Source of the DNA: Elusimicrobiota bacterium
GTDB taxonomy: Bacteria > Elusimicrobiota > Elusimicrobia > UBA1565
Assembly (NCBI GenBank): GCA_043819795.1
Contig: JBDREN010000073.1
Location: 1-12,170 of the forward strand
Direction: 5' to 3'
DNA: 12,170 nt
Shown: in pieces, positions 1,928 through 12,170 of the stretch
How the letters are laid out: every line of letters starts with the position of its first letter
How positions within the stretch are numbered: the first letter of the stretch is position 1
Position numbers and translations under genes: made by a program
The notes under the pieces: model-generated
Database searches by the model: none
What the model was told of the DNA's origin: nothing
What the model saw: only the letters and a program-made list of their open reading frames with translations

Positions 1928-1957
1928 TTGAAATGCCTCTCGGATTAGGTCTACAAT
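1928..1957 (+). promoter_or_regulatory. sigma70-like promoter for the LamG gene
   Basis: TTGAAA (1928-1933), 18-nt spacer, TACAAT (1952-1957). Confidence 0.6.
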
Positions 1958-2027
1958 GGTGTTGTTCGAAGGTCGCGGAATCTCACCTCGCCATCCCAGC
2001 CAGCGACCCGCCGGAAGGGAGGAATCA

Positions 2028-3122
2028 ATGCTCAAGAAGACAATGCCGGCACGCGCGCTTGGCCCGCTCGGCTGCGTTGCGATCGCCATGAGCTTTGCCT
2101 TTGTGACGGCTCAGACAGCGAGCGCGCAGATGACGTGTCCCAGCGGCATGGTGAACTATTGGACGTTCGACGACGGGACGATCGAGGGAAACACCGCTTA
2201 CGATGTGGTCGGAGGGAACCACGCCACGATCACCGGGGCGATATCGGATTCGGGGCGCGTGGGTGGAGCGTTGAGCTTCGACGGCAACGACCATGCGCTC
2301 ACCAACAGCGACATAAGCATAACGGGGAATCAGCCCAGGACCATGGAATTCTGGGCGAAGACGGATAATCTGACATCGACGCCCATCACCCAGCCGGTCC
2401 TCTGGTGGGGAGGCCTATCCACCGCGCGCCTGAACTTGATCACCTTCGGGAATTCGGGGAATACCGCCTTCTCCACGGCGATCTTCTTCGGCTTCTACCG
2501 CGACGTGTTGGGCGAAACGGCACTCCTTCCCGACGAGTGGACTCACGTGGCGGTGACGTACGATGGGACCCATATCAGGATATACATCAACGGGGTTTCG
2601 GGAGCCGCAAGCCCGCAAGCGCTCAACACCACCGCGAGCAGGATGACCATGGGCTACTACCCCGGCTGGCCCAGCTACTACATAGGCGAAGTCGACGAGA
2701 TAGCGATCTACGACAGGGCCCTGACAGCGGCCGAGATCCAAGGCCACTATCAGAGCGGCCTCATGGGCTACGGATACTGCATGCCGGACACCGACGGTGA
2801 CGGGATCGGCGACGACTTCGACGCGTGCGCCGCCACCCCGCCGGGAGAAGAGCTCGTCCGCGGATGCTCCGCCAGCCAGATGTCCGGCTCCGACGACGCG
2901 GACGGCGACGGAGCGACCGACGATGCCGACGCCTGCCCGGGCACGGACCCGGAACTGGAGCCGTACAGGCCCATCGCCGAAGGCTGCTCCTGCTACCAGA
3001 TCCTGGAGATGAAGCCCGGCGCGGACAAGGGCGAGATGAAGAACGGCTGCTCCAACGGGACCTTGGGCGGCTTCCTTAATCGGAAGGGCTGGGCCAAAGA
3101 CATCCCGCGACCGGGTCAATAG
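2028..3122 (+). CDS. Secreted LamG-like jellyroll (Laminin_G_3/pentraxin-like) protein with TSP3-like Ca-binding repeats and a Cys-containing tail (364 aa)
   Basis: GGAGG RBS before ATG 2028 and a signal peptide ending ...AQTASA. LamG motifs: YWTFDDG, GGALSFDG, TMEFW, WTHVAVTYDG..IYING, GEVDEIAIYDRALTAAEI. DTDGDGIGDDFDAC and DADGDGATDDADAC repeats. Tail GCSCYQILEMKPG..KGEMKNGCS. Confidence 0.85.
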   Translation: MLKKTMPARALGPLGCVAIAMSFAFVTAQTASAQMTCPSGMVNYWTFDDGTIEGNTAYDVVGGNHATITGAISDSGRVGGALSFDGNDHALTNSDISITGNQPRTMEFWAKTDNLTSTPITQPVLWWGGLSTARLNLITFGNSGNTAFSTAIFFGFYRDVLGETALLPDEWTHVAVTYDGTHIRIYINGVSGAASPQALNTTASRMTMGYYPGWPSYYIGEVDEIAIYDRALTAAEIQGHYQSGLMGYGYCMPDTDGDGIGDDFDACAATPPGEELVRGCSASQMSGSDDADGDGATDDADACPGTDPELEPYRPIAEGCSCYQILEMKPGADKGEMKNGCSNGTLGGFLNRKGWAKDIPRPGQ

Positions 3123-3190: not shown

Positions 3191-3325
3191 GCGCTGACGG
3201 CTTCACTTGGGGGAAGGGTGGCCAGCGCCATATGGATGGCGCGCAGAATCCTGACATCCACCCTGAAGATTCGGGAAGCATGCTTGCTCCAAGGCCCGCC
3301 TCAAAGGGAATATCCCCGTCGAGCA

Positions 3326-3607
3326 AACGGCTCCGGCCGCGACGCGGACCAGGACGGATGCGTGGACTCCGTGGATGACCTCGGGGCCACGATCGAAGCT
3401 TTGGAGCTGCCCGCGGGAACGCCCTCCTCGATCACAGAGAAGGCCGACAACGCCGCGGCCGCGGCGGAAAGAGGCAACTCCAATGCCGCGCGGAACGTCC
3501 TGGGGGCGTTCATCAACCGGATCGAGGCCCAGCGCGGCAAGAAGATCAGCGATGAGGAGGCTCAACTCCTCATCGACTTCGCCTTGAACGCGATCGGTGG
3601 GCTATAG
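3326..3607 (+). pseudogene. Orphan C-terminal fragment of a secreted protein: TSP3-like motif plus FIMAH-like helical tail (within ORF 3218..3607)
   Basis: NGSGRDADQDGCVDSVDDL...AARNVLGAFINRIEAQRGKKISDEEAQLLIDFA resembles C-terminal helical tails of extracellular proteins. The first ~35 codons of the 3218 ORF look non-coding, with no signal peptide. Confidence 0.55.
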
Positions 3608-3708
3608 AATCCGTCGCCGCGGCGTCAGGGTGCAACGGCAGTCCTGACACACAAAAAAGAGTCTGATTATACCAATACTATTTCGTATTCGGTGTCGGGT
3701 GGATGTCA

Positions 3709-3739
3709 TTGACTTGTCAGCGAAATGGGGTTATACAAT
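3709..3739 (+). promoter_or_regulatory. Putative sigma70 promoter for the collagen-like gene
   Basis: TTGACT (3709-3714), then TATACA at 17 nt or TACAAT at 19 nt spacing, within an AT-rich intergenic stretch. Confidence 0.45.
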
Positions 3740-3837
3740 CAGCAGAACAGGGTGGCCGAGGCCTTTGCCTTGACCGGCCGGATTTCTTTTTGCGCAGTGT
3801 TGACATTGAGCGATCAGTCCCATCGGATGGAGGAGAC

Positions 3838-5892
3838 ATGAACGGATCCATGAAGACTCTAATGATCCTCGGGGCCGCGATGGCCCTGGCAACGGCGAGC
3901 GCGACGGCCGGGTCGAACAAGGCCGAAGAGCATCCCGTCCAACTTGTGATCACGAAAGCGGCGGCGGACTTGGAGGCGGCCACACCCAAGCTGATCATCG
4001 AAGGCAGGAACTTCGGGAGCGATCCCCAGGTTCTGATGGGGAGGGGGGCGGGAGTTCTCGATGAGCTGCAGATCGCCTACTCCACCGACGACTGGATCGA
4101 GGCCGCGCTCGCGACAACCGAGCCCGGCACGTATCTGCTCATCGTCAACTCGGGCAACGGCGCCACCCAGACCTTCGCCACGGACGTTACGATCGGCGCG
4201 GTCGGGCCCGAAGGTCCCCAAGGACCGAAGGGGGACGAAGGCGACAAGGGCGACCAGGGAGATACCGGGCCGACGGGACCTCAAGGTCCCCAGGGAGAGC
4301 AGGGCGAGATAGGGCCGATGGGACCGGATGGGCCACACGGTGAGCAGGGCGATATCGGCGACACGGGCCCGCAGGGCGACAAAGGAGACCAAGGCGACAA
4401 GGGCGACCAGGGAGACACCGGGCCGATAGGACCGCAAGGCGCCAAGGGTGACACGGGAGATGCGGGACCCGCTGGAGCGGACGGCGCCAAGGGCGACACG
4501 GGAGATTCAGGACCCGCTGGAGCGGACGGCGCCAAAGGGGACACCGGTGACACGGGTCCCGCGGGAGCGGACGGAGCGCCGGGCCCGAAGGGCGACACCG
4601 GCGACACCGGACCGGCGGGGCCCGAGGGCGACTCATTCTGGACGCTGAACGGAGAGGACGTCTATCGGGACGCCGGCAAGCTCGGCATCGGGACGGCGAG
4701 CCCGGGGGGGGTCGCGCATTTCAGGTCGGCGGGCTACATAAATCCCGTCATCATCGAAGCCGCGTCGAACAGCGCCGCGCTGGATTTCCTGGAATCCGCC
4801 AGGAACCAGAGGTGGAGGCTTCAGATCCCCGGTGGAAGCTCCGCGGGCTACAGACTCGACAGCATGGAATACTGGGATGTGACCCACAACGCATCCCGGT
4901 TTATCGTCCGTGACGACGGGAACGTCTTCATGGGCCACAGCGGCGGCAACGTCGGGATCGGCACGACGAGCCCGGCAGCGAAGCTGGACGTGGCCGGCAC
5001 GGTGAAGGCGAACGCGTTCGTCGGCGACGGCTCGGGGCTGACGAACCTGCCGACGGGGGGCGGCTCGAGCCCGTGGACGGTGGGTTCGGGGCTGATCCAC
5101 TACGACGGCGGCAGGGTCGGCGTCGGGACGGCGAGCCCGGGCGGGATCGCGCATTTCAAGTCGGAAGGCTTCATCAACCCCGTCATCATCGAGGCCGCGT
5201 CGGACAGCCCCGCGCTGGACTTCGTGGAATCCGCCAGGAACCAGAGGTGGAGGATCCAGATCCCCGGCGGATGGTCCGCGGCCTACAGGCTCGACGGCAT
5301 GGAATACTGGGACGTTACCAACAACGTATCTCGGTTCATCGTCCGTAACGACGGGGACGTCTTCATGGGCCACAGCGGCGGCAACGTCGGCATCGGGACG
5401 ACCACCCCCGGAGCCAAGCTCGAGGTGGCGGGCCAGGTCAGGATAACCGGCGGATCACCCGGAGACGGCAAGGTTTTGACCTCGGACGCGAGCGGCACAG
5501 CAGCCTGGGAAACGTTGCCTGAAGCGATCAGCGGGATCCCGGAGGGATTCACGAAGACGGCCGGCGTGATCCACACCGGGAGACAGCCTCGGGCCATCCA
5601 CAAGGACGCGGGGAGATACTGCGCCACGTTGAGCGCGCACATATGCGAAGCCGTCGAATACAGCCGGGCCGGCCTGGGCTGGTACGACAACTCGAACCCC
5701 ATGGCCAGCGACCACTTGTTCTGGGCGGGCTCCACCGCCTGGAACGCCGTGGCCAACTGCGTGGAATACTCATGCACGGTCGGAGCGACCGTGGAGGCAG
5801 GGAGTCACGACGGCAATTCATACCAGCTCGGGCCGCTGAATCCCTGCTCGACCAGGTGCGACAGAACGCTGTACTACCACTGCTGCAAGTAG
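3838..5892 (+). CDS. Secreted collagen-like fibre/adhesin: signal peptide, Ig/IPT-like domain, collagen triple helix, two GIGT-repeat modules, Cys-rich tip (684 aa)
   Basis: GGAGGAG RBS before ATG 3838. Signal peptide MKTLMILGAAMALATASATA. LIIEGRNFG..P.V and PGTYLLIV are Ig/IPT-like. 49 uninterrupted Gly-X-Y triplets. GNVGIGTTSPAAKLDVAG and GKVLTSDASGTAAW fibre motifs. C-terminus has 8 Cys and ends YYHCCK. Confidence 0.85.
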   Translation: MNGSMKTLMILGAAMALATASATAGSNKAEEHPVQLVITKAAADLEAATPKLIIEGRNFGSDPQVLMGRGAGVLDELQIAYSTDDWIEAALATTEPGTYLLIVNSGNGATQTFATDVTIGAVGPEGPQGPKGDEGDKGDQGDTGPTGPQGPQGEQGEIGPMGPDGPHGEQGDIGDTGPQGDKGDQGDKGDQGDTGPIGPQGAKGDTGDAGPAGADGAKGDTGDSGPAGADGAKGDTGDTGPAGADGAPGPKGDTGDTGPAGPEGDSFWTLNGEDVYRDAGKLGIGTASPGGVAHFRSAGYINPVIIEAASNSAALDFLESARNQRWRLQIPGGSSAGYRLDSMEYWDVTHNASRFIVRDDGNVFMGHSGGNVGIGTTSPAAKLDVAGTVKANAFVGDGSGLTNLPTGGGSSPWTVGSGLIHYDGGRVGVGTASPGGIAHFKSEGFINPVIIEAASDSPALDFVESARNQRWRIQIPGGWSAAYRLDGMEYWDVTNNVSRFIVRNDGDVFMGHSGGNVGIGTTTPGAKLEVAGQVRITGGSPGDGKVLTSDASGTAAWETLPEAISGIPEGFTKTAGVIHTGRQPRAIHKDAGRYCATLSAHICEAVEYSRAGLGWYDNSNPMASDHLFWAGSTAWNAVANCVEYSCTVGATVEAGSHDGNSYQLGPLNPCSTRCDRTLYYHCCK
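4195..4635 (+). repeat. Collagen Gly-X-Y repeat region (49 triplets), including three tandem 45-bp units (GAKGDTGD[A/S/T]GPAGAD) at 4438-4572
   Basis: Direct translation from GAV GPE GPQ to GPA GPE GDS. Confidence 0.95.
4639..5433 (+). repeat. Intragenic duplication: 360-nt units at 4639-4998 and 5074-5433 (offset 435 nt)
   Basis: Colinear without gaps. GTASPGG.AHF.S.G.INPVIIEAAS..ESARNQRWR.QIPGG...MEYWDVT...VFMGHSGGNVGIGTT appears in both copies, with high DNA identity. Confidence 0.95.
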
Positions 5893-5956
5893 GACGTTGA
5901 GTTTGTTGAGTAAATCTTCGGCCCGGTCGCCGGGTCGTGGAAGAATTCAATGCCTG

Positions 5957-6027
5957 ACTCGGTACCGGGCACCTTTATTGAGTAACTCTTACTCGGTGCC
6001 TGGCACCTTTATCGAGTAACTTCTCGG
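5957..6027. repeat. Tandem 34-bp-period palindromic (REP-like) repeat between convergent genes
   Basis: ACTCGGTACCGGGCACCTTTATTGAGTAACT (5957-5987) and ACTCGGTGCCTGGCACCTTTATCGAGTAACT (5991-6021), then a partial TCTCGG. Internal palindromes GGTGCC-T-GGCACC and TTACTCG/CGAGTAA. Confidence 0.8.
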
Positions 6028-6892: not shown

Positions 6893-6924
6893 GGATAAAC
6901 CCGCCTCCGCGGACCAGCATGTAT

Positions 6925-6933
6925 ATTATAGCA
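6925..6933 (-). promoter_or_regulatory. Extended -10 promoter (TGCTATAAT) for the 6892 gene
   Basis: The reverse complement of attatagca is TGCTATAAT, a perfect TGnTATAAT, 32 nt upstream of the start codon. Confidence 0.65.
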
Positions 6934-6984
6934 TGGCCGGTGCGATTCCTCGGACCGGATTAAGAAATCTCCCTCAAAAACCCC

Positions 6985-6990
6985 TATAAT
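6985..6990 (+). promoter_or_regulatory. -10 element (TATAAT) for the KamA-like cluster
   Basis: Perfect TATAAT 53 nt upstream of ATG 7044. The -35 is weak. AAGGAG RBS at 7032-7037. Confidence 0.55.
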
Positions 6991-7043
6991 GGATTAACGC
7001 TCCATGGCCCGCCGGGCCGGGAGCCCAAGGCAAGGAGATATCT

Positions 7044-9647
7044 ATGACGCGATACGGATCACCCCTGGAAGTGAAGTTCGCGCGCTCCAAGGAGCGCCAG
7101 ACGGTCGATCTCGGCAGGCTCCGGGACCGCATCGTGGATTTCCTCGAATACTACTGCCATGAGCCGCTCGTGGAAGGCTCCTTCGTCGAGCGCGTCGGCG
7201 GCGAGGACGGCCAGGCCCGTTTCGGAGCCCTGCTGCGCGAGAGCGGCTTCCCCGAGGACTCGCACGGGTTCTTCGCCGAGCTCATCGGGCGCCTGGAGTC
7301 CGCCGGCTGCCGGGACCACAAGCCGGTCGTCATCGGCGGCCTCACGCTCCCGTACCGGCTGCTGCTGGCGGCGATGGAGGAGCTGCTGCCCGGGACGGAG
7401 TGCAAGGCGGTCAAGAAGCTCTCCCAGCTCGAGGAGCTGGCGAACATCGCCGTGCCGGCCAAAGAGAAGCGGGCCCTCCAGGACGTCCTGGACCTCTATC
7501 CGGTCCGCCTGTCCATGCACGCGATCCGGCAGATGCGCCTTTCGCCCGCGGTGGCCGCGCAGTACCTGCCCTTCGCCGCCGAGCTGGACGCGTCGGGCGA
7601 GGTGCACACCTGGGTGGGGCAGTTCTACCGGGGCATCATGGAGCAGATGTATCAGAACCGGGTCATCCTGCTCATGAACATGAGCTGCCCCGTGTACTGC
7701 CGCTTCTGCTTCCGCAAGCACAAGGAGTGCCGCAACCAGAAGTCCCCGACCAAGCTGCACGTCAAGGCGGACCTCGCCTATCTGGCCCAGAACCCGGCGG
7801 TCACCGAGGTCGTGCTCACCGGCGGGGATCCCTTCATGAACAAGGCGACCCTGATGTTCGCCGTGGACGAGCTGGCCAAGATCCCCCACATCAAGACTTT
7901 GCGTCTGGCCACCCGCTCGTTCTCCTACTATCCGGACCTGTTCTACGCCGACAACTCCTTCTGGCTCAACTACCTGATCCGCAAGAACCTGGAGCTCCAG
8001 CAGAAGGGCAAGCGCCTCGAGGCCGCGACCCATTTCGTCCACCCCGACGAGGTGTCGGTCCAGACGTTGGAGCTCGTCTCCCGCCTGGTCGCGGAAGGCG
8101 TGCCGGTGTACGTGCAGACGCCCTTCGTGAGCGAGTGCAACGACTCCGGGCGGGAGATGGTGGAGCTCTTCAACATGCTGCGCGGCGCGGGAGCCGAGCT
8201 GCACTACATCTTCATGCCCACGAGCCCCATCCGGGGCAACTGCGTGTACTGGTCCCCCATCTCGCGCGGCCTAGAAGCGGGGCGTTACCTGCGGGCGCAT
8301 CTCTCCGACCGGGCCGTCCCGCACCTCACCACCGCGACGCGCATCGGGAAGGTGGACTGGAACACCAGCGGCTGGATCGTGGAGCCGGCCAAGGAGAAGC
8401 CGGGCTTCGTATGGATCCGGACGCCGTACACCAAGGACTATTTCGAGTCGTTCACGCCCATCCTCCAGCTCTCGGACGCCGTGCGCGCCAACAGCGAGGG
8501 GACGATGGACGCCATGTTCTTCTCGGAGATCGGCGACGACCGGCTCGTGGCGGGCCCCCGGGGGCTGACCTCCTCCCCGCAGGCCTACGAGAACAAGATC
8601 GCCCGCACCAAGGAGACGGTCCGTACCTCCCTGGAGGCGCTCCAGGCCAAGCTGCTCGACGACCAGCGCGACCCCAAGACGATCGTCAAGGCCGACGCCT
8701 GGCCGACCGCCTCCAGGCAGCACAAGACCCGCGTCGAGATCGACTGCGGCGCGCCGGACGACGGCGTCGAGGCCTCGCTGAAATACGTCGCGGAGCAGAA
8801 AGCCGTGACCGACGTCGTCCTGTCCCGACGCAACGATATCACCGCGTCGTTCTCTCGGACAGCCGAGATCATCGGCCGGCTCCAGCGCATACCCCACGTG
8901 CGGGCGATCCGCCTCCGGAGCTTCGCGCTCAACCTCGCTCCCCAGGCCTACTCGCGGGCGTTCTTGAGCAGGCTGACGGGCCTCAATAAGCTCACGGCCG
9001 TCGACCCGAAGCGGCTGGAGATCGAGACGTGCTTCCTGCACTCATCGGAGTTCCAGCCGGAGCACTCCCGGATCGTGGACACGCTACGCTTGCGCGGGGT
9101 GACGGTGTACAACAACACCCCGCTGCTCGGCTACGTCAACGACAACGAGGAGGAGATGCTGCGCGTCGCGCACGGCCTCCGGGACCTCGGCATCGAGTTC
9201 ACGAACGTCTACGTGGCCGGCCTGCCGGTGCAGGCCGACTGGAACCGGCGATACCCCATCGAGCTCAACAGCGTGCTCGACATCGGCAGCCGCATCCGGA
9301 AGCACGGCAGCGGGCGGGAGGTCCCCCGCTACCTCGTCGGCACGGCGCTCGGCGAGGTGGACTTCTCCATCGCCCCCCGCATCTTCGAGCCCGCGGAGGG
9401 CGGCCGGGTCCTCGTGCGCATGCTGCCGCACGACCTGGCGTATTTCCGGGCCATGGATCCGGACTTCCGGTGGCCGGACGACGTGCGCCAGGACGGCGAG
9501 GGGCATCCGCGCGTGCCCGTGGCCGGGATATCCCTGCGGAACCAGGAGTTCTTGTTCCGCCCTCTCAGCGGGAAGGCCCCAAGCGGCGAGGGCGCGGCGG
9601 CGCAAGCCCCGGCCCGGACCCGAGGGAAGCCCACGCCCCCCAGATGA
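7044..9647 (+). CDS. Tandem two-domain KamA-family (lysine 2,3-aminomutase-like) radical SAM protein (867 aa)
   Basis: Domain 1: YQNRVILL, CPVYCRFCFRK (Cys at 7686-7709), VTEVVLTGGDP, IPHIKTLRLATR, THFVHPDEV, VYVQTP..CND, VPHLTTATRIGK. Domain 2 (about 8715-9560) repeats these: HKTRVEI, VTDVVLS, IPHVRAIRLRS, TCFLHSSEF, VYNNTPLLGYVND, VPRYLVGTALGE, but has no CxxxCxxC. Confidence 0.85.
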   Translation: MTRYGSPLEVKFARSKERQTVDLGRLRDRIVDFLEYYCHEPLVEGSFVERVGGEDGQARFGALLRESGFPEDSHGFFAELIGRLESAGCRDHKPVVIGGLTLPYRLLLAAMEELLPGTECKAVKKLSQLEELANIAVPAKEKRALQDVLDLYPVRLSMHAIRQMRLSPAVAAQYLPFAAELDASGEVHTWVGQFYRGIMEQMYQNRVILLMNMSCPVYCRFCFRKHKECRNQKSPTKLHVKADLAYLAQNPAVTEVVLTGGDPFMNKATLMFAVDELAKIPHIKTLRLATRSFSYYPDLFYADNSFWLNYLIRKNLELQQKGKRLEAATHFVHPDEVSVQTLELVSRLVAEGVPVYVQTPFVSECNDSGREMVELFNMLRGAGAELHYIFMPTSPIRGNCVYWSPISRGLEAGRYLRAHLSDRAVPHLTTATRIGKVDWNTSGWIVEPAKEKPGFVWIRTPYTKDYFESFTPILQLSDAVRANSEGTMDAMFFSEIGDDRLVAGPRGLTSSPQAYENKIARTKETVRTSLEALQAKLLDDQRDPKTIVKADAWPTASRQHKTRVEIDCGAPDDGVEASLKYVAEQKAVTDVVLSRRNDITASFSRTAEIIGRLQRIPHVRAIRLRSFALNLAPQAYSRAFLSRLTGLNKLTAVDPKRLEIETCFLHSSEFQPEHSRIVDTLRLRGVTVYNNTPLLGYVNDNEEEMLRVAHGLRDLGIEFTNVYVAGLPVQADWNRRYPIELNSVLDIGSRIRKHGSGREVPRYLVGTALGEVDFSIAPRIFEPAEGGRVLVRMLPHDLAYFRAMDPDFRWPDDVRQDGEGHPRVPVAGISLRNQEFLFRPLSGKAPSGEGAAAQAPARTRGKPTPPR

Positions 9648-11236
9648 GCGCGGGCCCGGGCCGCTTCTTCTTCGATAACGGGCCCATCCATCCCTGCGAG
9701 GGCCAGCCGCTCCGGGACGGGGCGCTGGGCGTGCAGGACGGGCTCATCTCCTACGTCGGGCCGCGCCAAGAGGCCGATCCCGCCTTGATCGAAGGGGCCG
9801 AGAGGATCGACTTGGACGGCAGGGCCCTGTTCCCCGGCTTCTGCGACTCCCACGTCCACTTCCTGCTCGCGGCCGAGATGCTCGACTACGTGGACTGCCG
9901 GGACGTCTCCGACGTCCGGACGATCCAGGACCGCGTCGGGGAGAAATGCCGCAAGACCGGCGAGGGGGAATGGGTGCTCGGCCGCGGGTGGGAGAAGCGC
10001 CTGCTCTTCCCGGACGGACATCCCTCCCCGGAGATGCTCGACGAGGCATCCCGCGAGCATCCGGTCCTGCTCATGAGCAAGGACGCGCATTCGGTCTGGC
10101 TGAACTCCCGAGCGCTGCGCCGCGCCCTCTCCGGGGGGGACCTGCCCGCGGCCTGCGTGGTCGATGAGCGCGGCGGCAAGCGCACCGGGCTCATCCTGGA
10201 GGAGGCGGAGGCCGTCAAGAACCTGCTGGTCCCCCGGCCTTCGGACGAGAAGAAGATCCGCCTGGCCGAAGGGATGCTGAAGGCGTTCTACTCCCATGGG
10301 ATCACGACGGTGCACAATATCGAACCCCCGGAGGGGTTCTCGCTGTGGAAGCGCTACGCCGAGGAGCATCCCGGCGTCCTCCGGATGGTCTGGAACTTCG
10401 TGTTCCCGTCGCCCGAAGCTCTGCGGGAGGGAAGGTCTCTCTTCCAGGAAGGCGTGCCCGGCCGCCTGGCCACGGGCGGGGCCAAGCTCTTCCTGGACGG
10501 CAGCTTCGGCTCGCTCAGCGCCGCCGTATCCGAGCCCTACGTCGGGACCTCAGAGCGCGGGCTGTTGAACTTCGAACGCGAGGCGCTCATGGAATGGCTT
10601 CGGACGCTGCGCGAGCTGGGCTTGAGCGGCCTCTTCCATGCCATCGGCGACCGGGCCACGGATCAGATCCTCTCGTGCCTCACCGAGCTCGATCGGCCCG
10701 CCGGATGCCGGCATCGCCTGGAGCATGTCCAGCTCCTTTCGCCGGACATCCTCGCCAAGCACGACTTCCGGAGGCTGATCTTCTCGGTGCAGCCGTCGCA
10801 CATGTGGGACGACCGCGGGATACTGGAGCGCAACATGGCCGAGAACTTCCGCGAGCGCTACGCCTACGTCTACCGCACCATCTCGGAGCGGGGGGGGACT
10901 TTGCTGATGGGCTCCGACGCCCCCGTCGAGGACATCAACCCCTGGAAGGGCATCCAGGCCGCGGTGACCCGGCTGGGAGACGCCGAAACGCCGCCCTGGA
11001 ACCCGGCGGAGGCGCTGACCCTGGAGGAGGCCATCGCCTGCCATACCCGGCATCCTTCCCGGGCGGTCCATCCCGGCTTCTCCGCCGGCGTCTTGAAGCC
11101 CGGGATGAAGGCGGACTTGGCTGTATTCAACAACGATCCGTACCGGGTCGCGGCCGACGATCCCGCCCGCCTGTGGAAGTCCTTGAAGACCGAGATGACC
11201 TTCGTGGACGGCCGGCTCGTCTATTCCTCGGGCTGA
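9644..11236 (+). CDS. Amidohydrolase family 3 (YtcJ/NfdA-like) metal-dependent amidohydrolase (530 aa)
   Basis: IDLDGRALFPGFCDSHVH, WVLGRGW, DAHSVWLNSRAL, GITTVH, KLFLDGSFGS, HAIGDRA, RHRLEHVQL, SVQPSH, GSDAPVE, ADLAV, TFVDGRLVY. ATG 9644 overlaps the upstream TGA (ATGA). The 9029 start in the ORF track is an artefactual extension. Confidence 0.9.
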   Translation: MSAGPGRFFFDNGPIHPCEGQPLRDGALGVQDGLISYVGPRQEADPALIEGAERIDLDGRALFPGFCDSHVHFLLAAEMLDYVDCRDVSDVRTIQDRVGEKCRKTGEGEWVLGRGWEKRLLFPDGHPSPEMLDEASREHPVLLMSKDAHSVWLNSRALRRALSGGDLPAACVVDERGGKRTGLILEEAEAVKNLLVPRPSDEKKIRLAEGMLKAFYSHGITTVHNIEPPEGFSLWKRYAEEHPGVLRMVWNFVFPSPEALREGRSLFQEGVPGRLATGGAKLFLDGSFGSLSAAVSEPYVGTSERGLLNFEREALMEWLRTLRELGLSGLFHAIGDRATDQILSCLTELDRPAGCRHRLEHVQLLSPDILAKHDFRRLIFSVQPSHMWDDRGILERNMAENFRERYAYVYRTISERGGTLLMGSDAPVEDINPWKGIQAAVTRLGDAETPPWNPAEALTLEEAIACHTRHPSRAVHPGFSAGVLKPGMKADLAVFNNDPYRVAADDPARLWKSLKTEMTFVDGRLVYSSG

Positions 11237-11333
11237 AGGACCGCGCCGGCGCCCAAGCTTGGTCCGGGCCCGGATCGTCCCGGGGCGCCGCGTCGGCATT
11301 TTGTACAATCGCCCCGCGAAGGCGGCAAGCGAC

Positions 11334-12170
11334 ATGCCCGACACTATCGAGAATCTCGGCGACAGCCTGGTGCAGCACGGCGCGCACAGCGACCGGGTGT
11401 ATCTCATGAGGCTCGACAAGGCCGACCTGCCGGGCATCGTCGAGCGGATTGACGCCCTGGCCCAAGAGCGCGGCTACTCCAAAATATTCGTCAAGGTCCC
11501 GGCCGCGGCCGGCGACGCCTTCCGGGGCCGGGGATACGAGGTCGAGGCGACCATCCCCGCCTTCTTCAACGGCGAGGAGGACGCCCTGTTCATGGCCCGC
11601 TACCCGGACCCGAAACGGAAGGAGGGGGCTCCGCGCCAGAAGATCGAGGAGGTGCTGGCCGCCTGCCGCGCGCGCGGCGGCGCGGAGGCCCCGCCCGCGC
11701 TCGATCCCGGCCTGAAGGCCGCCCATCTCGAGCCACGGCACGCCGACGAGGTCGCCGCGCTCTACAGGAAGGTGTTCGACACCTACCCCTTCCCCATCCA
11801 CGACCCCGCCTACATCGCCAAGACTATGGGCGAGGGCTTCGCCTATTTCGGGGTGTATGACGGCCAGAGGCTCGTGGCCGCCTCGTCGGCGGAGATGGAC
11901 CTGGCCGGCGCCTACTCCGAGATGACCGACTTCGCCACGCTCCCGGAATGCCGCGGCAAGGGACTGGCAACGATCCTCCTGGGGCTCATGGAGGATTTCG
12001 TGCGCCCAAAGGGCGTGCGGACCGCATTCACCATCGCGCGCGCGGTGTCCTTCGGGATGAACATCGCGTTCGCCCGCGTGGGCTATTCCTTCGGGGGCAC
12101 TCTTTGGAACAACACCAACATCTCCGGAAACATCGAGAGCATGAACATCTGGCACAAGCGCCTCGACCGG
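11334..12170 (+). CDS. ablB: Putative beta-lysine N-acetyltransferase (AblB/YodP-type GNAT); 3'-partial, 279 codons with no stop in the window
   Basis: Manual translation: MPDTIENLGDSLVQHGAHSDRVYLMRL...GYSKIFVKVP...GYEVEATIPAFFNGEEDALFMARY...LYRKVFDTYPFPIHDPAYIAKTM...SSAEMD...SEMTDFATLPECRGKGLA...TAFTIARAVSFGMNIAFARVGYSFGGTLWNNTNISGNIESMNIWHKRL. These are hallmark AblB/YodP motifs. Confidence 0.9.
   Translation, partial: MPDTIENLGDSLVQHGAHSDRVYLMRLDKADLPGIVERIDALAQERGYSKIFVKVPAAAGDAFRGRGYEVEATIPAFFNGEEDALFMARYPDPKRKEGAPRQKIEEVLAACRARGGAEAPPALDPGLKAAHLEPRHADEVAALYRKVFDTYPFPIHDPAYIAKTMGEGFAYFGVYDGQRLVAASSAEMDLAGAYSEMTDFATLPECRGKGLATILLGLMEDFVRPKGVRTAFTIARAVSFGMNIAFARVGYSFGGTLWNNTNISGNIESMNIWHKRLDR

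Follow-up and report, generated by a model that had tools for sequence, protein, structure and literature searches.

What does an ablB gene do behind a gene for a metal amidohydrolase and a gene for an 867-residue aminomutase-like protein? The three genes close the window, that is, the whole 12,170-nt stretch of DNA analysed here, which is the entire contig C73 of an Elusimicrobiota genome. Methanogens, methane-oxidising archaea and many anaerobic bacteria use N-acetyl-beta-lysine as a major osmolyte. According to the accessible text of PMC11337218 and of PMC3543383 (citing Pfluger et al. 2003), the AblA/AblB (kamA-ablB) operon makes N-epsilon-acetyl-beta-lysine (NeABL) in methanogens and ANME archaea. 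The words 'amidohydrolase' and 'deacetylase' do not occur in the accessible text of PMC11337218.

Layout and products of the three genes

All three genes lie on the + strand, with the ATGA overlap and the 97-nt gap that an earlier note on this DNA had described. The tandem KamA gene (7044–9647, 867 aa), recognised by ORF layout and KamA-family profile matches, ends in a TGA (9645–9647) overlapped by the ATG (9644) of the next gene. This second gene (9644–11236, 530 aa) encodes a YtcJ-type protein of the Amidohydro_3 family. Past the spacer (11237–11333, +), ablB, a gene of the beta-lysine N-epsilon-acetyltransferase family, starts with ATG at 11334 and runs to 12170, with 279 of its 282 codons in the window. 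The last 141 nt of C73 match the end of contig C151 without a difference when the latter is reverse-complemented; C151 is 47.7 kb long and belongs to the same bin. Read through this overlap, AblB has 282 residues; the window is short by the final three codons and the stop.

The upstream intergenic region (6893–7043, +), presumed from the ORF layout to be the promoter region, is common to the tandem gene and a divergent gene for a 285-aa signal-peptide protein, which has no Pfam match and belongs to no known family. No sigma-70 consensus or sigma-70-like site was found by promoter scan, this region included, and terminator-like sites in the window stood at background level. The spacer contains a G+C-rich palindrome (inverted repeat 11247–11290) with no T-run on its 3' side and no terminator-like site in the promoter/terminator scan. 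An Rfam scan of the whole window gave no match at E ≤ 1, and therefore no riboswitch was seen. In blastn against the genome, the C-terminal tail of the tandem protein, the spacer and the upstream region matched only themselves and are therefore not genomic repeats. A search for sequencing runs listed two DNA runs, both with a small share, and no RNA dataset.

The 530-aa protein matches PF07969 with an E value of 2.1e-69 (235.7 bits against a gathering cut-off of 29.7). Residues H70 and H72 (HxH), K281, H332, H361 and D425 do not vary among 21 orthologues; by superfamily analogy we take them to be metal ligands, and the enzyme appears to retain the full putative binuclear-metal set (HxH, Lys, His, His, Asp). 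It has 22 close relatives at 41–52% identity, after which identity falls to 35% or less. Four orthologous amidohydrolases agree with tandem-KamA homologues in the length of the longest contig (16316, 55198, 7397 and 7075), which we treat as no more than a hint. In four of four other genomes tested, its best match was the copy in the cluster, and the module-linked amidohydrolases are each other's closest copies there. A metagenome scan with the amidohydrolase alignment served as negative control only: the matches listed were distant YtcJ-like paralogues at 28–33% identity, and the tandem gene or ablB was present in 0 of the 80 loci around them. The third gene product had been called AblB, and it scored 328 bits against TIGR03827 (GNAT_ablB; cut-off 205.1) over model positions 2–266 of 266, with an Acetyltransf_1 match in Pfam (E 6.8e-08). 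It is a member of this family by score, and epsilon-acetylation of beta-lysine is its putative activity.

The tandem KamA protein and its predicted pocket

The earlier note had read the 867-aa protein as a double-domain aminomutase-like enzyme, and our searches bear this out. KamA-family profiles matched in two separate stretches, at 7644–8330 (110.7 bits) and 8757–9338 (55.9 bits) with TIGR00238 in the genome scan. Half 1 (residues ~120–500; 7401–8543, +), delimited by the invariant columns of a 25-sequence alignment and by phmmer to 2A5H, is an intact KamA-like core; half 2 (residues ~560–830; 8721–9533, +), delimited by its TIGR00238 match and by BLASTP against half 1, is a degenerate one. 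The halves share 31% identity over 238 aa (E 3e-27, BLASTP). From N to C terminus, the chain comprises an N-terminal domain (~1–118), the intact core, a linker helix, the degenerate core and a 25-aa tail of low confidence. The protein is thus an internal duplication, whose one chain contains an intact and a degenerate KamA core.

Half 1 carries the Cys triad (CxxxCxxC; Cys215/219/222, at 7686–7709), Arg224, TGGDP (259–263) and Lys436 (8349–8351), of which the three Cys and T259-G-G-D-P263 show no variation among the 25 family sequences aligned. In half 2 the triad is gone, SRRND stands in place of GGDP, and Glu stands in place of Lys436. The whole protein scored 163.5 bits against TIGR00238, under the cut-off of 199.2, and 159.5 bits against the AblA equivalog TIGR03820, far under the cut-off of 525.4. 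An AlphaFold model (pLDDT 86.5, pTM 0.89) had Clostridium subterminale lysine 2,3-aminomutase (LAM, 2A5H) as its top fold match (VIA-align Z 19.4, rmsd 2.8 Å over 346 residues; next entry 9.8). Consistently, Foldseek returned 2a5h_A (E 5e-18, TMt 0.69), and 2A5H was the only solved structure matched by sequence (phmmer, E 5.9e-20), with C125/129/132 aligned to C215/219/222 and R134 to R224. The tandem protein therefore shares with LAM the Cys triad, GGDP and the Arg after the third Cys. It differs in fusing two copies, the second without cofactor residues, in its extra N-terminal domain of ~118 aa, in a 21-aa insert past the candidate PLP lysine, and in the LAM_C domain, which was not detected by Pfam. 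The family is large and unnamed, with members of 820–860 aa in many phyla; in a literature search that covered few subscription journals, we found neither a tandem nor a duplicated KamA enzyme described.

A further difference from LAM concerns the substrate pocket. In 2A5H, D293 and D330 are the two Asp that bind the epsilon-ammonium group of lysine. Their equivalents in the alignment are T/S and A/T in all 25 tandem family members (T393/S394 at the D293 site of the window protein, A431 and a flanking Thr at the D330 site), whereas canonical AblAs in the same alignment kept both Asp (5/5). The pocket is accordingly predicted, from alignment to one crystal structure, to lack both epsilon-ammonium Asp and to keep the carboxylate-binding Arg. 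Because both Asp are replaced by Thr, Ser or Ala, the predicted substrate is an uncharged, N-epsilon-acetylated lysine-type compound that would undergo an alpha/beta amino shift. The PLP lysine is ambiguous. We favour K436 as the candidate on the ground that the live half keeps it in all 25 sequences and the dead half has Glu there; MAFFT, in conflict with this, places LAM K337 (the PLP lysine, after the last barrel strand) opposite the invariant R459, past the 21-aa insert.

The intact Fe-S, SAM and carboxylate-binding residues would also suit the explanation of the earlier note, in which the tandem enzyme itself is the aminomutase that feeds AblB, with lysine or some other diamino acid as its substrate; the product would be acetylated by AblB and deacylated again by the amidohydrolase when it is unneeded. 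The loss of both distal-ammonium Asp throughout the family argues against it, and the genomic evidence below cuts both ways.

Linkage to ablB, transporters and canonical AblA

The check that the earlier note had proposed, whether homologues of the tandem gene have Amidohydro_3 and ablB as neighbours, gave a positive outcome in other lineages. Of 80 loci, 9 had ablB next to the tandem gene; in 8 of these it lay immediately upstream in the same orientation, and in 1 it was convergent. An Amidohydro_3 homologue was present within 8 kb in 33 loci, and 8 loci had it immediately or almost immediately downstream. The exact order tandem gene, amidohydrolase, ablB occurred in the window only. Directly 3' of the tandem gene, 43 of the 80 loci had a gene for an M23-fold protein with HxxxD and HxH intact, a position occupied by the amidohydrolase in the window and in one other locus (L011). 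In a 201-genome class sample, ablB was present in 20 of 46 tandem-positive and 6 of 155 tandem-negative genomes, so that by these raw counts the odds of ablB are ~19 times higher in the former; the two genes lay within 10 kb of each other in 11 of the 20 genomes carrying both. Collectively, these data support the conclusion that the three genes are functionally tied and form a conserved module of several lineages.

Chance adjacency of the three genes, or a contig foreign to the genome, might be suspected since, of 201 genomes sampled from the phylum to which the window belongs, a single one, the window genome itself, had the tandem gene. We regard this as very improbable. The ATGA coupling and the recurrent linkage in unrelated lineages speak against it, and the linkage counts come close to refuting chance. 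Moreover, the module has a G+C content of 0.67–0.68 (genome mean 0.668), in tetranucleotide usage it sits closer to the genome mean than do 96% of 5-kb pieces drawn at random, and the contig overlaps C151 of the same bin. Recent transfer or mis-binning was set aside on this match in composition.

Other neighbours point to uptake and to osmolytes, and we count them in favour of the turnover scheme proposed below. A PotABCD-like importer and an IclR gene occurred in at least 29 loci of the tandem gene; in one locus (L021), the gene's neighbour encodes an OpuAC binding protein. In three of three extended Desulfobacterales loci, AblB, an aminotransferase, Amidohydro_3, a ProRac-like gene, the PotABCD-like importer and IclR formed a set transcribed in divergent orientation to the tandem gene and to an M23-like gene. 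Alternatively, the tandem enzyme could serve the uptake and catabolism of an imported nitrogen compound other than NeABL, with AblB and the amidohydrolase as a protect-deprotect pair resembling B. subtilis kamA-yodP. The Desulfobacterales cluster core fits this proposal, being made up of IclR, the importer, the proline-racemase-family enzyme, Amidohydro_3, the tandem gene and the M23-like hydrolase, with ablB and the aminotransferase at the far end. The cluster also occurred without ablB in five scanned carriers (G225, G226, G227, G231 and G250), and ablB was found in 0 of 8 genomes of a divergent, low-scoring subclade of the tandem family. Similarly, ablB was not seen in 26 of the 46 tandem-positive genomes of the class sample, and the core job of the tandem enzyme may therefore not involve NeABL. 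However, no importer, regulator, aminotransferase or ProRac-like gene lies beside the module in the window, several lineages link the tandem gene to canonical ablA-ablB osmolyte operons with Na+/solute symporters, and the raised odds of ablB weigh the same way. We hold uptake and catabolism to be possible, at about one chance in four.

The relation to canonical AblA bears on who supplies AblB. The window genome encodes a canonical AblA on contig C23 (TIGR03820, 722 bits). The search beyond position 12170 that had been suggested found no canonical ablA adjoining the module's ablB, which is flanked by the amidohydrolase gene, with the tandem gene and genes for secreted proteins further 5', and across the C151 overlap by a gene for a NosD-like (beta-helix) protein. 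The module thus resembles the abl operon in joining a TIGR03827-scoring AblB with a KamA-fold radical SAM gene in a genome that encodes canonical AblA. It differs in that the partner is the low-scoring tandem protein without the lysine-binding Asp, a metal amidohydrolase gene lies between the two genes, and canonical AblA is unlinked. Elsewhere, canonical ablA, ablB and the tandem gene share one operon or cluster (L068, MarR-ablA-ablB-tandem; L009, ablA-SSF-ablB-tandem; and L046). The 867-aa enzyme thus does not simply take AblA's place, as first proposed, given the C23 copy, these shared loci and the missing Asp pair. In two same-family relatives (G072 and G182), an SSF gene, a 328-aa ORF of no known kind and an AblB-like gene were present, and the tandem gene and AblA were absent in the stretch inspected; this arrangement is uninformative on function.

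Supply of AblB by the tandem enzyme draws support from the eight loci with ablB directly upstream on the same strand and from the Desulfobacteria-type genomes. Of 22 such genomes having the tandem gene and ablB, in none did an AblA exceed the TIGR03820 cut-off, and in 9 there was no KamA match at E ≤ 1e-60. The AblBs of these clusters also form their own clade (SH-aLRT 95), and their specificity could therefore be shifted. Against this, canonical AblA is present in the window genome and in 10 of 10 tandem- and ablB-carrying genomes flagged outside the Desulfobacteria-type set (one titled delta proteobacterium), and in L068 and L009, where AblA is in the same operon, a second source would be redundant. 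Additionally, 7 of the 22 genomes have an unlinked LAM-like paralogue (430–490 bits), with both Asp kept in the 3 inspected, and the window AblB groups in the tree with AblBs that adjoin canonical ablA. Supply by the tandem enzyme is therefore rather unlikely in our view, yet a serious contender.

Proposed role in osmolyte turnover

As our preferred reading we propose, with a probability of roughly 0.35, that the module is attached to the NeABL system and serves osmolyte turnover, not replacement of synthesis. AblA (C23) and AblB would make NeABL; the tandem enzyme would interconvert NeABL and N-epsilon-acetyl-L-lysine by an alpha/beta amino shift on the acetylated substrate; and the amidohydrolase, coupled to it in translation, would next deacetylate the product to lysine and acetate. 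The dead half of the tandem enzyme may be a stand-in for the second subunit of the LAM dimer. This turnover scheme needs regulation that separates ablB from the turnover genes within one operon, and none was found. The original idea of osmolyte synthesis plus recycling survives in this preferred reading, with the tandem enzyme placed in recycling or remodelling. A different N-acyl-beta-amino acid is a possible product.

The B. subtilis kamA operon presumably contains the AblB-like YodP and the deacetylase-like YodQ. The module resembles it in bringing together an aminomutase, an AblB-type acetyltransferase and a deacylase-type hydrolase, which an aminotransferase joins in the Desulfobacterales version. 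It differs in that the KamA of B. subtilis is a canonical single-core enzyme, and the hydrolase of that region belongs, we assume, to another superfamily than Amidohydro_3. The accessible text of PMC6522883 describes B. subtilis KamA and YodT as SigE-dependent and the role of KamA as unknown. In the ectoine cycle, a compatible solute is broken down again by its own producer once salinity drops, with an N-acetyl-amino-acid deacetylase step (accessible text of PMC7192451); the parallel is an analogy only, the enzymes being unrelated and the solute different.

N-epsilon-acetyl-alpha-lysine and N-epsilon-acetyl-beta-lysine are both known osmolytes. Tentatively, and with less assurance than for turnover in general, we suggest that the tandem KamA may be an N-epsilon-acetyl-lysine 2,3-aminomutase, a pseudo-heterodimer with a single active site that would interconvert the two and would be the first radical SAM/PLP aminomutase to act on an N-acylated amino acid. 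Paired with a deacetylase of its own, which would be Amidohydro_3 in the window and an M23-fold zinc enzyme in other loci, it would constitute the missing catabolic and salvage route for acetyl-beta-lysine in anaerobes. No description of an acetyl-beta-lysine deacetylase was found in the literature searched, which included few subscription journals, and the accessible text of the acetyl-beta-lysine papers found covers synthesis, with nothing on removal or reuse.

Radical SAM enzymologists would find the enzyme of interest in its own right, as nature has here joined a live and a dead LAM core in one chain and, by prediction, re-lined the substrate pocket. Owing to its genomic tie to ablB and its pairing with a hydrolase, this widespread unnamed family is a concrete and testable candidate for the missing route by which NeABL may be removed or salvaged.

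Organization of the three-gene module

Positions 7044–12170 are filled by three plus-strand genes, which constitute a real, translationally coupled module. The first (7044–9647) encodes an 867-aa tandem KamA-like protein, and its TGA is overlapped by the ATG at 9644 of the second, a 530-aa Amidohydro_3 gene (9644–11236), confirming the ATGA overlap reported in the earlier note. The spacer that follows (11237–11333) measures 97 nt, again as described there, and contains a palindrome at 11247–11290; the third gene, ablB, begins at 11334 and is cut off by the contig end at 12170. A search of sequencing runs listed no RNA run.

The window is one complete contig (C73, 12,170 nt) of a 4.99-Mb assembly in 241 contigs. 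Its last 141 nt (12030–12170) match, exactly and in reverse complement, the terminal sequence of contig C151 (locus L008), the sole match among the other contigs. The overlap resembles an assembler k-mer overlap, and the two contigs are probably adjacent. Read across it, AblB has a full length of 282 aa, ending three codons past the window. A canonical ablA beside ablB just outside the window, a possibility raised earlier, was not found there: the first gene after AblB on C151 encodes a NosD/beta-helix secreted protein, followed by an unknown 466-aa ORF and an FG-GAP/TSP3/FIMAH protein. Upstream of the module lie a divergent gene for a 285-aa signal-peptide protein without known family and, further on, genes for collagen-like, laminin-G/TSP3 and PLD-like proteins. 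With secreted-type and PLD-like genes upstream and a NosD-like gene downstream, the module comprises just these three genes, and ablA flanks it on neither side.

Several features of the upstream region were also noted. The Laminin_G_3/TSP3 ORF (1956–3122, plus strand) is followed in a different frame by a 129-aa ORF with a FIMAH domain (3218–3607, plus strand); since TSP3 and FIMAH are joined in one 934-aa protein on C151, the two ORFs may represent a single gene interrupted by a frameshift or assembly error. The gene for the 729-aa collagen-triple-helix protein (3703–5892, plus strand) contains an array with units in multiples of 9 nt (4231–4626) and two 300-nt copies that are 88% alike (4669–4968 and 5104–5403). 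Two tandem 34-nt copies, 88% alike, lie between this gene and the 285-aa ORF (5954–6021).

A live/dead tandem KamA fold and its partners

Two separate stretches of the 867-aa protein match KamA-family models (110.7 and 55.9 bits), and the protein falls under all family cut-offs (TIGR00238, 163.5 vs 199.2; AblA model, 159.5 vs 525.4). It has a 118-aa N-terminal domain, and its two halves are 31% identical across 238 residues (E 3e-27). Half 1 carries CPVYCRFC (C215/C219/C222), TGGDP and Lys436, which is invariant; in half 2 the Cys motif, GGDP and the lysine are all missing, with SRRND in place of GGDP and Glu in place of Lys436. The AlphaFold model is confident (pLDDT 86.5, pTM 0.89) and has only one strong structural relative, lysine 2,3-aminomutase (LAM; 2A5H, Foldseek E 5e-18), to which a VIA alignment gave Z 19.4 and an rmsd of 2.8 Å over 346 residues (next entry, 9.8). 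The protein is thus a tandem KamA fold with one live and one dead half. Residues 842–867 (9567–9647) form an Ala/Pro/Gly/Arg-rich C-terminal tail that is absent from homologues, has pLDDT <50 and showed no repeat elsewhere in the genome; the amidohydrolase start sits at the end of the tail-coding stretch.

A phmmer comparison aligned C125/C129/C132 of 2A5H with C215/C219/C222 and R134 with R224, and the live-half cofactor residues are invariant across a 25-sequence family alignment. LAM D293 and D330, which hold the epsilon-ammonium of lysine, align with T393/S394 and A431, respectively. No acidic residue occupies these positions in any of the 25 family members; both aspartates are kept in all five canonical AblAs aligned with them. 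The candidate PLP-binding residue differs by approach, being K436 by conservation logic and R459 by MAFFT alignment. Since the carboxylate Arg is preserved along with the residues for Fe-S and SAM, and a Lys candidate exists, the protein is still predicted to be a PLP/SAM aminomutase. Its substrate would, judging from the replaced aspartates, have an uncharged side chain, and N-epsilon-acetylated lysine would be the simplest fit, given the ablB and deacylase-type partners.

The third gene product is AblB by a match over the full length of the curated model (TIGR03827, 328 bits vs a cut-off of 205.1), and the second is a YtcJ-type Amidohydro_3 protein (E 2.1e-69). Only 22 close relatives of the latter were found (41–52% identity), beyond which similarity is ≤35%; H70, H72, K281, H332, H361 and D425 are invariant among the closest 21.

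Recurrence and gene linkage of the tandem family

Of the 8,000 candidates scored in a protein search, 984 were relatives. Nearly all of the best 120 measure 820–867 aa, with 48–69% identity and at least 92% query cover, and their source annotations go no further than 'radical SAM protein', 'KamA family protein' or an automatic 'lysine 2,3-aminomutase'. Hosts include Desulfobacterota, Planctomycetota, Aminicenantes, KSB1, Acidobacteriota, Calditrichota, Sumerlaeota and others. Within the phylum of the window the family was found in none of 200 other sampled genomes (1/201 with this one), and AblB in 12 of the 201. Despite this rarity, mis-binning or recent arrival of the module was set aside, as the module is typical of the genome in both G+C and tetranucleotide composition. 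Two KamA-like paralogues below all curated cut-offs occur in the same assembly, one of 738 aa beside a ThiF-family gene (C121; L002:853–3069) and one of 483 aa beside a pseudouridine synthase gene (C11; L003:1189–2640, minus strand). The closest relatives, two genomes from the same family as the window's genome (loci L188/L189), carry AblB-like genes only ~30% identical to the window AblB, preceded by an SSF symporter and a 328-aa ORF without known family; the stretch read contained neither AblA nor a tandem gene.

Co-occurrence of the three families, the check proposed in the earlier note, was borne out in a survey of 80 genomic homologue loci with flanks of up to 8 kb each side. ablB was present in nine loci (eight directly upstream on the same strand, one convergent) and an Amidohydro_3 homologue in 33, in eight of them immediately downstream of the tandem gene or nearly so. 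Five loci (L015, L031, L042, L044 and L072) hold the whole trio in another order, ablB, tandem gene and convergent amidohydrolase, and three-way linkage thus recurs in several lineages. Clustering of all ORFs further placed a 221-aa M23-fold protein with conserved HxxxD and HxH motifs (HLGLD, HTH) directly after the tandem gene in 43/80 loci. A hydrolase gene always adjoins the tandem gene. The M23/LytM-fold protein lacks an evident signal peptide and resembles a zinc hydrolase of the cytoplasm; no homologue was found in the window's genome. A divergent IclR regulator occurs in 29 loci; after it come a PotABCD-like importer, a proline-racemase-family enzyme and an amidohydrolase, and all three such loci that were extended continue with a class I/II aminotransferase and AblB (295–302 bits). 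The cluster-linked copy was the best match of the window amidohydrolase in 4/4 other genomes (152–192 bits vs 55–146 for the runner-up), and 80 control metagenome loci (660 kb) centred on distant YtcJ-like paralogues contained neither tandem gene nor ablB.

At the genome level, ablB scored above cut-off in 33 of 50 genomes carrying the tandem gene. A class sample of 201 genomes around one carrier, itself included by construction, held the tandem gene in 46, ablB in 26 and both in 20; ablB thus occurred in 20/46 tandem-positive vs 6/155 tandem-negative genomes (odds ratio ~19, uncorrected for relatedness). The two lay within 10 kb in 11 of the 20, 533 kb apart in one and on different contigs in eight. 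A lower-scoring subclade (eight genomes, ~785–870 bits) had ablB in 0/8. Half of the tandem carriers lack ablB, which speaks for a reading that we consider unlikely: breakdown of a different imported compound, to which AblB is an accessory.

Relation to canonical AblA and proposed function

The earlier note placed the 867-aa protein in AblA's position. This does not hold, at least not simply: both LAM aspartates are missing, a canonical AblA (TIGR03820, 722 bits, LAM_C domain present) is encoded on contig C23, with no ablB beside it, and ablA, ablB and the tandem gene occur together elsewhere. The orders include MarR-ablA-ablB-tandem (L068), ablA-Na+/solute symporter-ablB-tandem (L009) and tandem-M23 convergent with MarR-ablA-ablB (L046); in L062 ablA is directly upstream of the tandem gene. 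An SSF gene lies between canonical ablA and ablB in several lineages (L009, L093, L094, L096 and L097).

Canonical AblA was sought in 38 genomes at the TIGR03820 cut-off. All 10 carriers from other loci have it, usually beside ablB; their titles read Bradymonadales, KSB1, Acidobacteriota/Acidobacteria, Calditrichota, Sumerlaeota, one 'delta proteobacterium' and three others. ablA adjoined ablB in three of six ablB-positive, tandem-negative genomes. One genome (G202, contig C1) has two ablA-ablB pairs with identical scores 24.5 kb apart (61289–63393 and 85850–87954), either a duplication or an assembly repeat. None of 22 Desulfobacteria-type genomes with tandem gene and ablB exceeded the cut-off; nine had no match at E ≤ 1e-60 and seven had a 430–490-bit paralogue. 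The three such paralogues read share 49–51% identity with this genome's AblA and retain both aspartates. The many Desulfobacterales carriers showing no canonical AblA are the main support for the earlier proposal that the tandem enzyme feeds AblB, which we also consider unlikely.

In a tree of AblBs from all fetched AblB-bearing loci, none dropped (28 rows, quick search, SH-aLRT only), the nine AblBs from Desulfobacterales clusters group in a single clade (SH-aLRT 95), which may merely reflect organism relationships. The window AblB pairs with that of L046 (SH-aLRT 94), among ablA-associated AblBs.

The two-enzyme synthesis of acetyl-beta-lysine and its usual operon are described in PMC11337218 and PMC3543383, and the role of B. 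subtilis KamA is stated as unknown in PMC6522883. Full-text literature searches covering few subscription journals turned up neither an account of the tandem enzyme nor one of how acetyl-beta-lysine is broken down.

We tentatively favor, at roughly one chance in three, a role in osmolyte turnover. Acetyl-beta-lysine made by AblA and AblB would be turned back into N-epsilon-acetyl-alpha-lysine by the tandem enzyme, with the amidohydrolase then splitting that product into lysine and acetate; in Desulfobacterales, the same chemistry may be applied to an imported solute.
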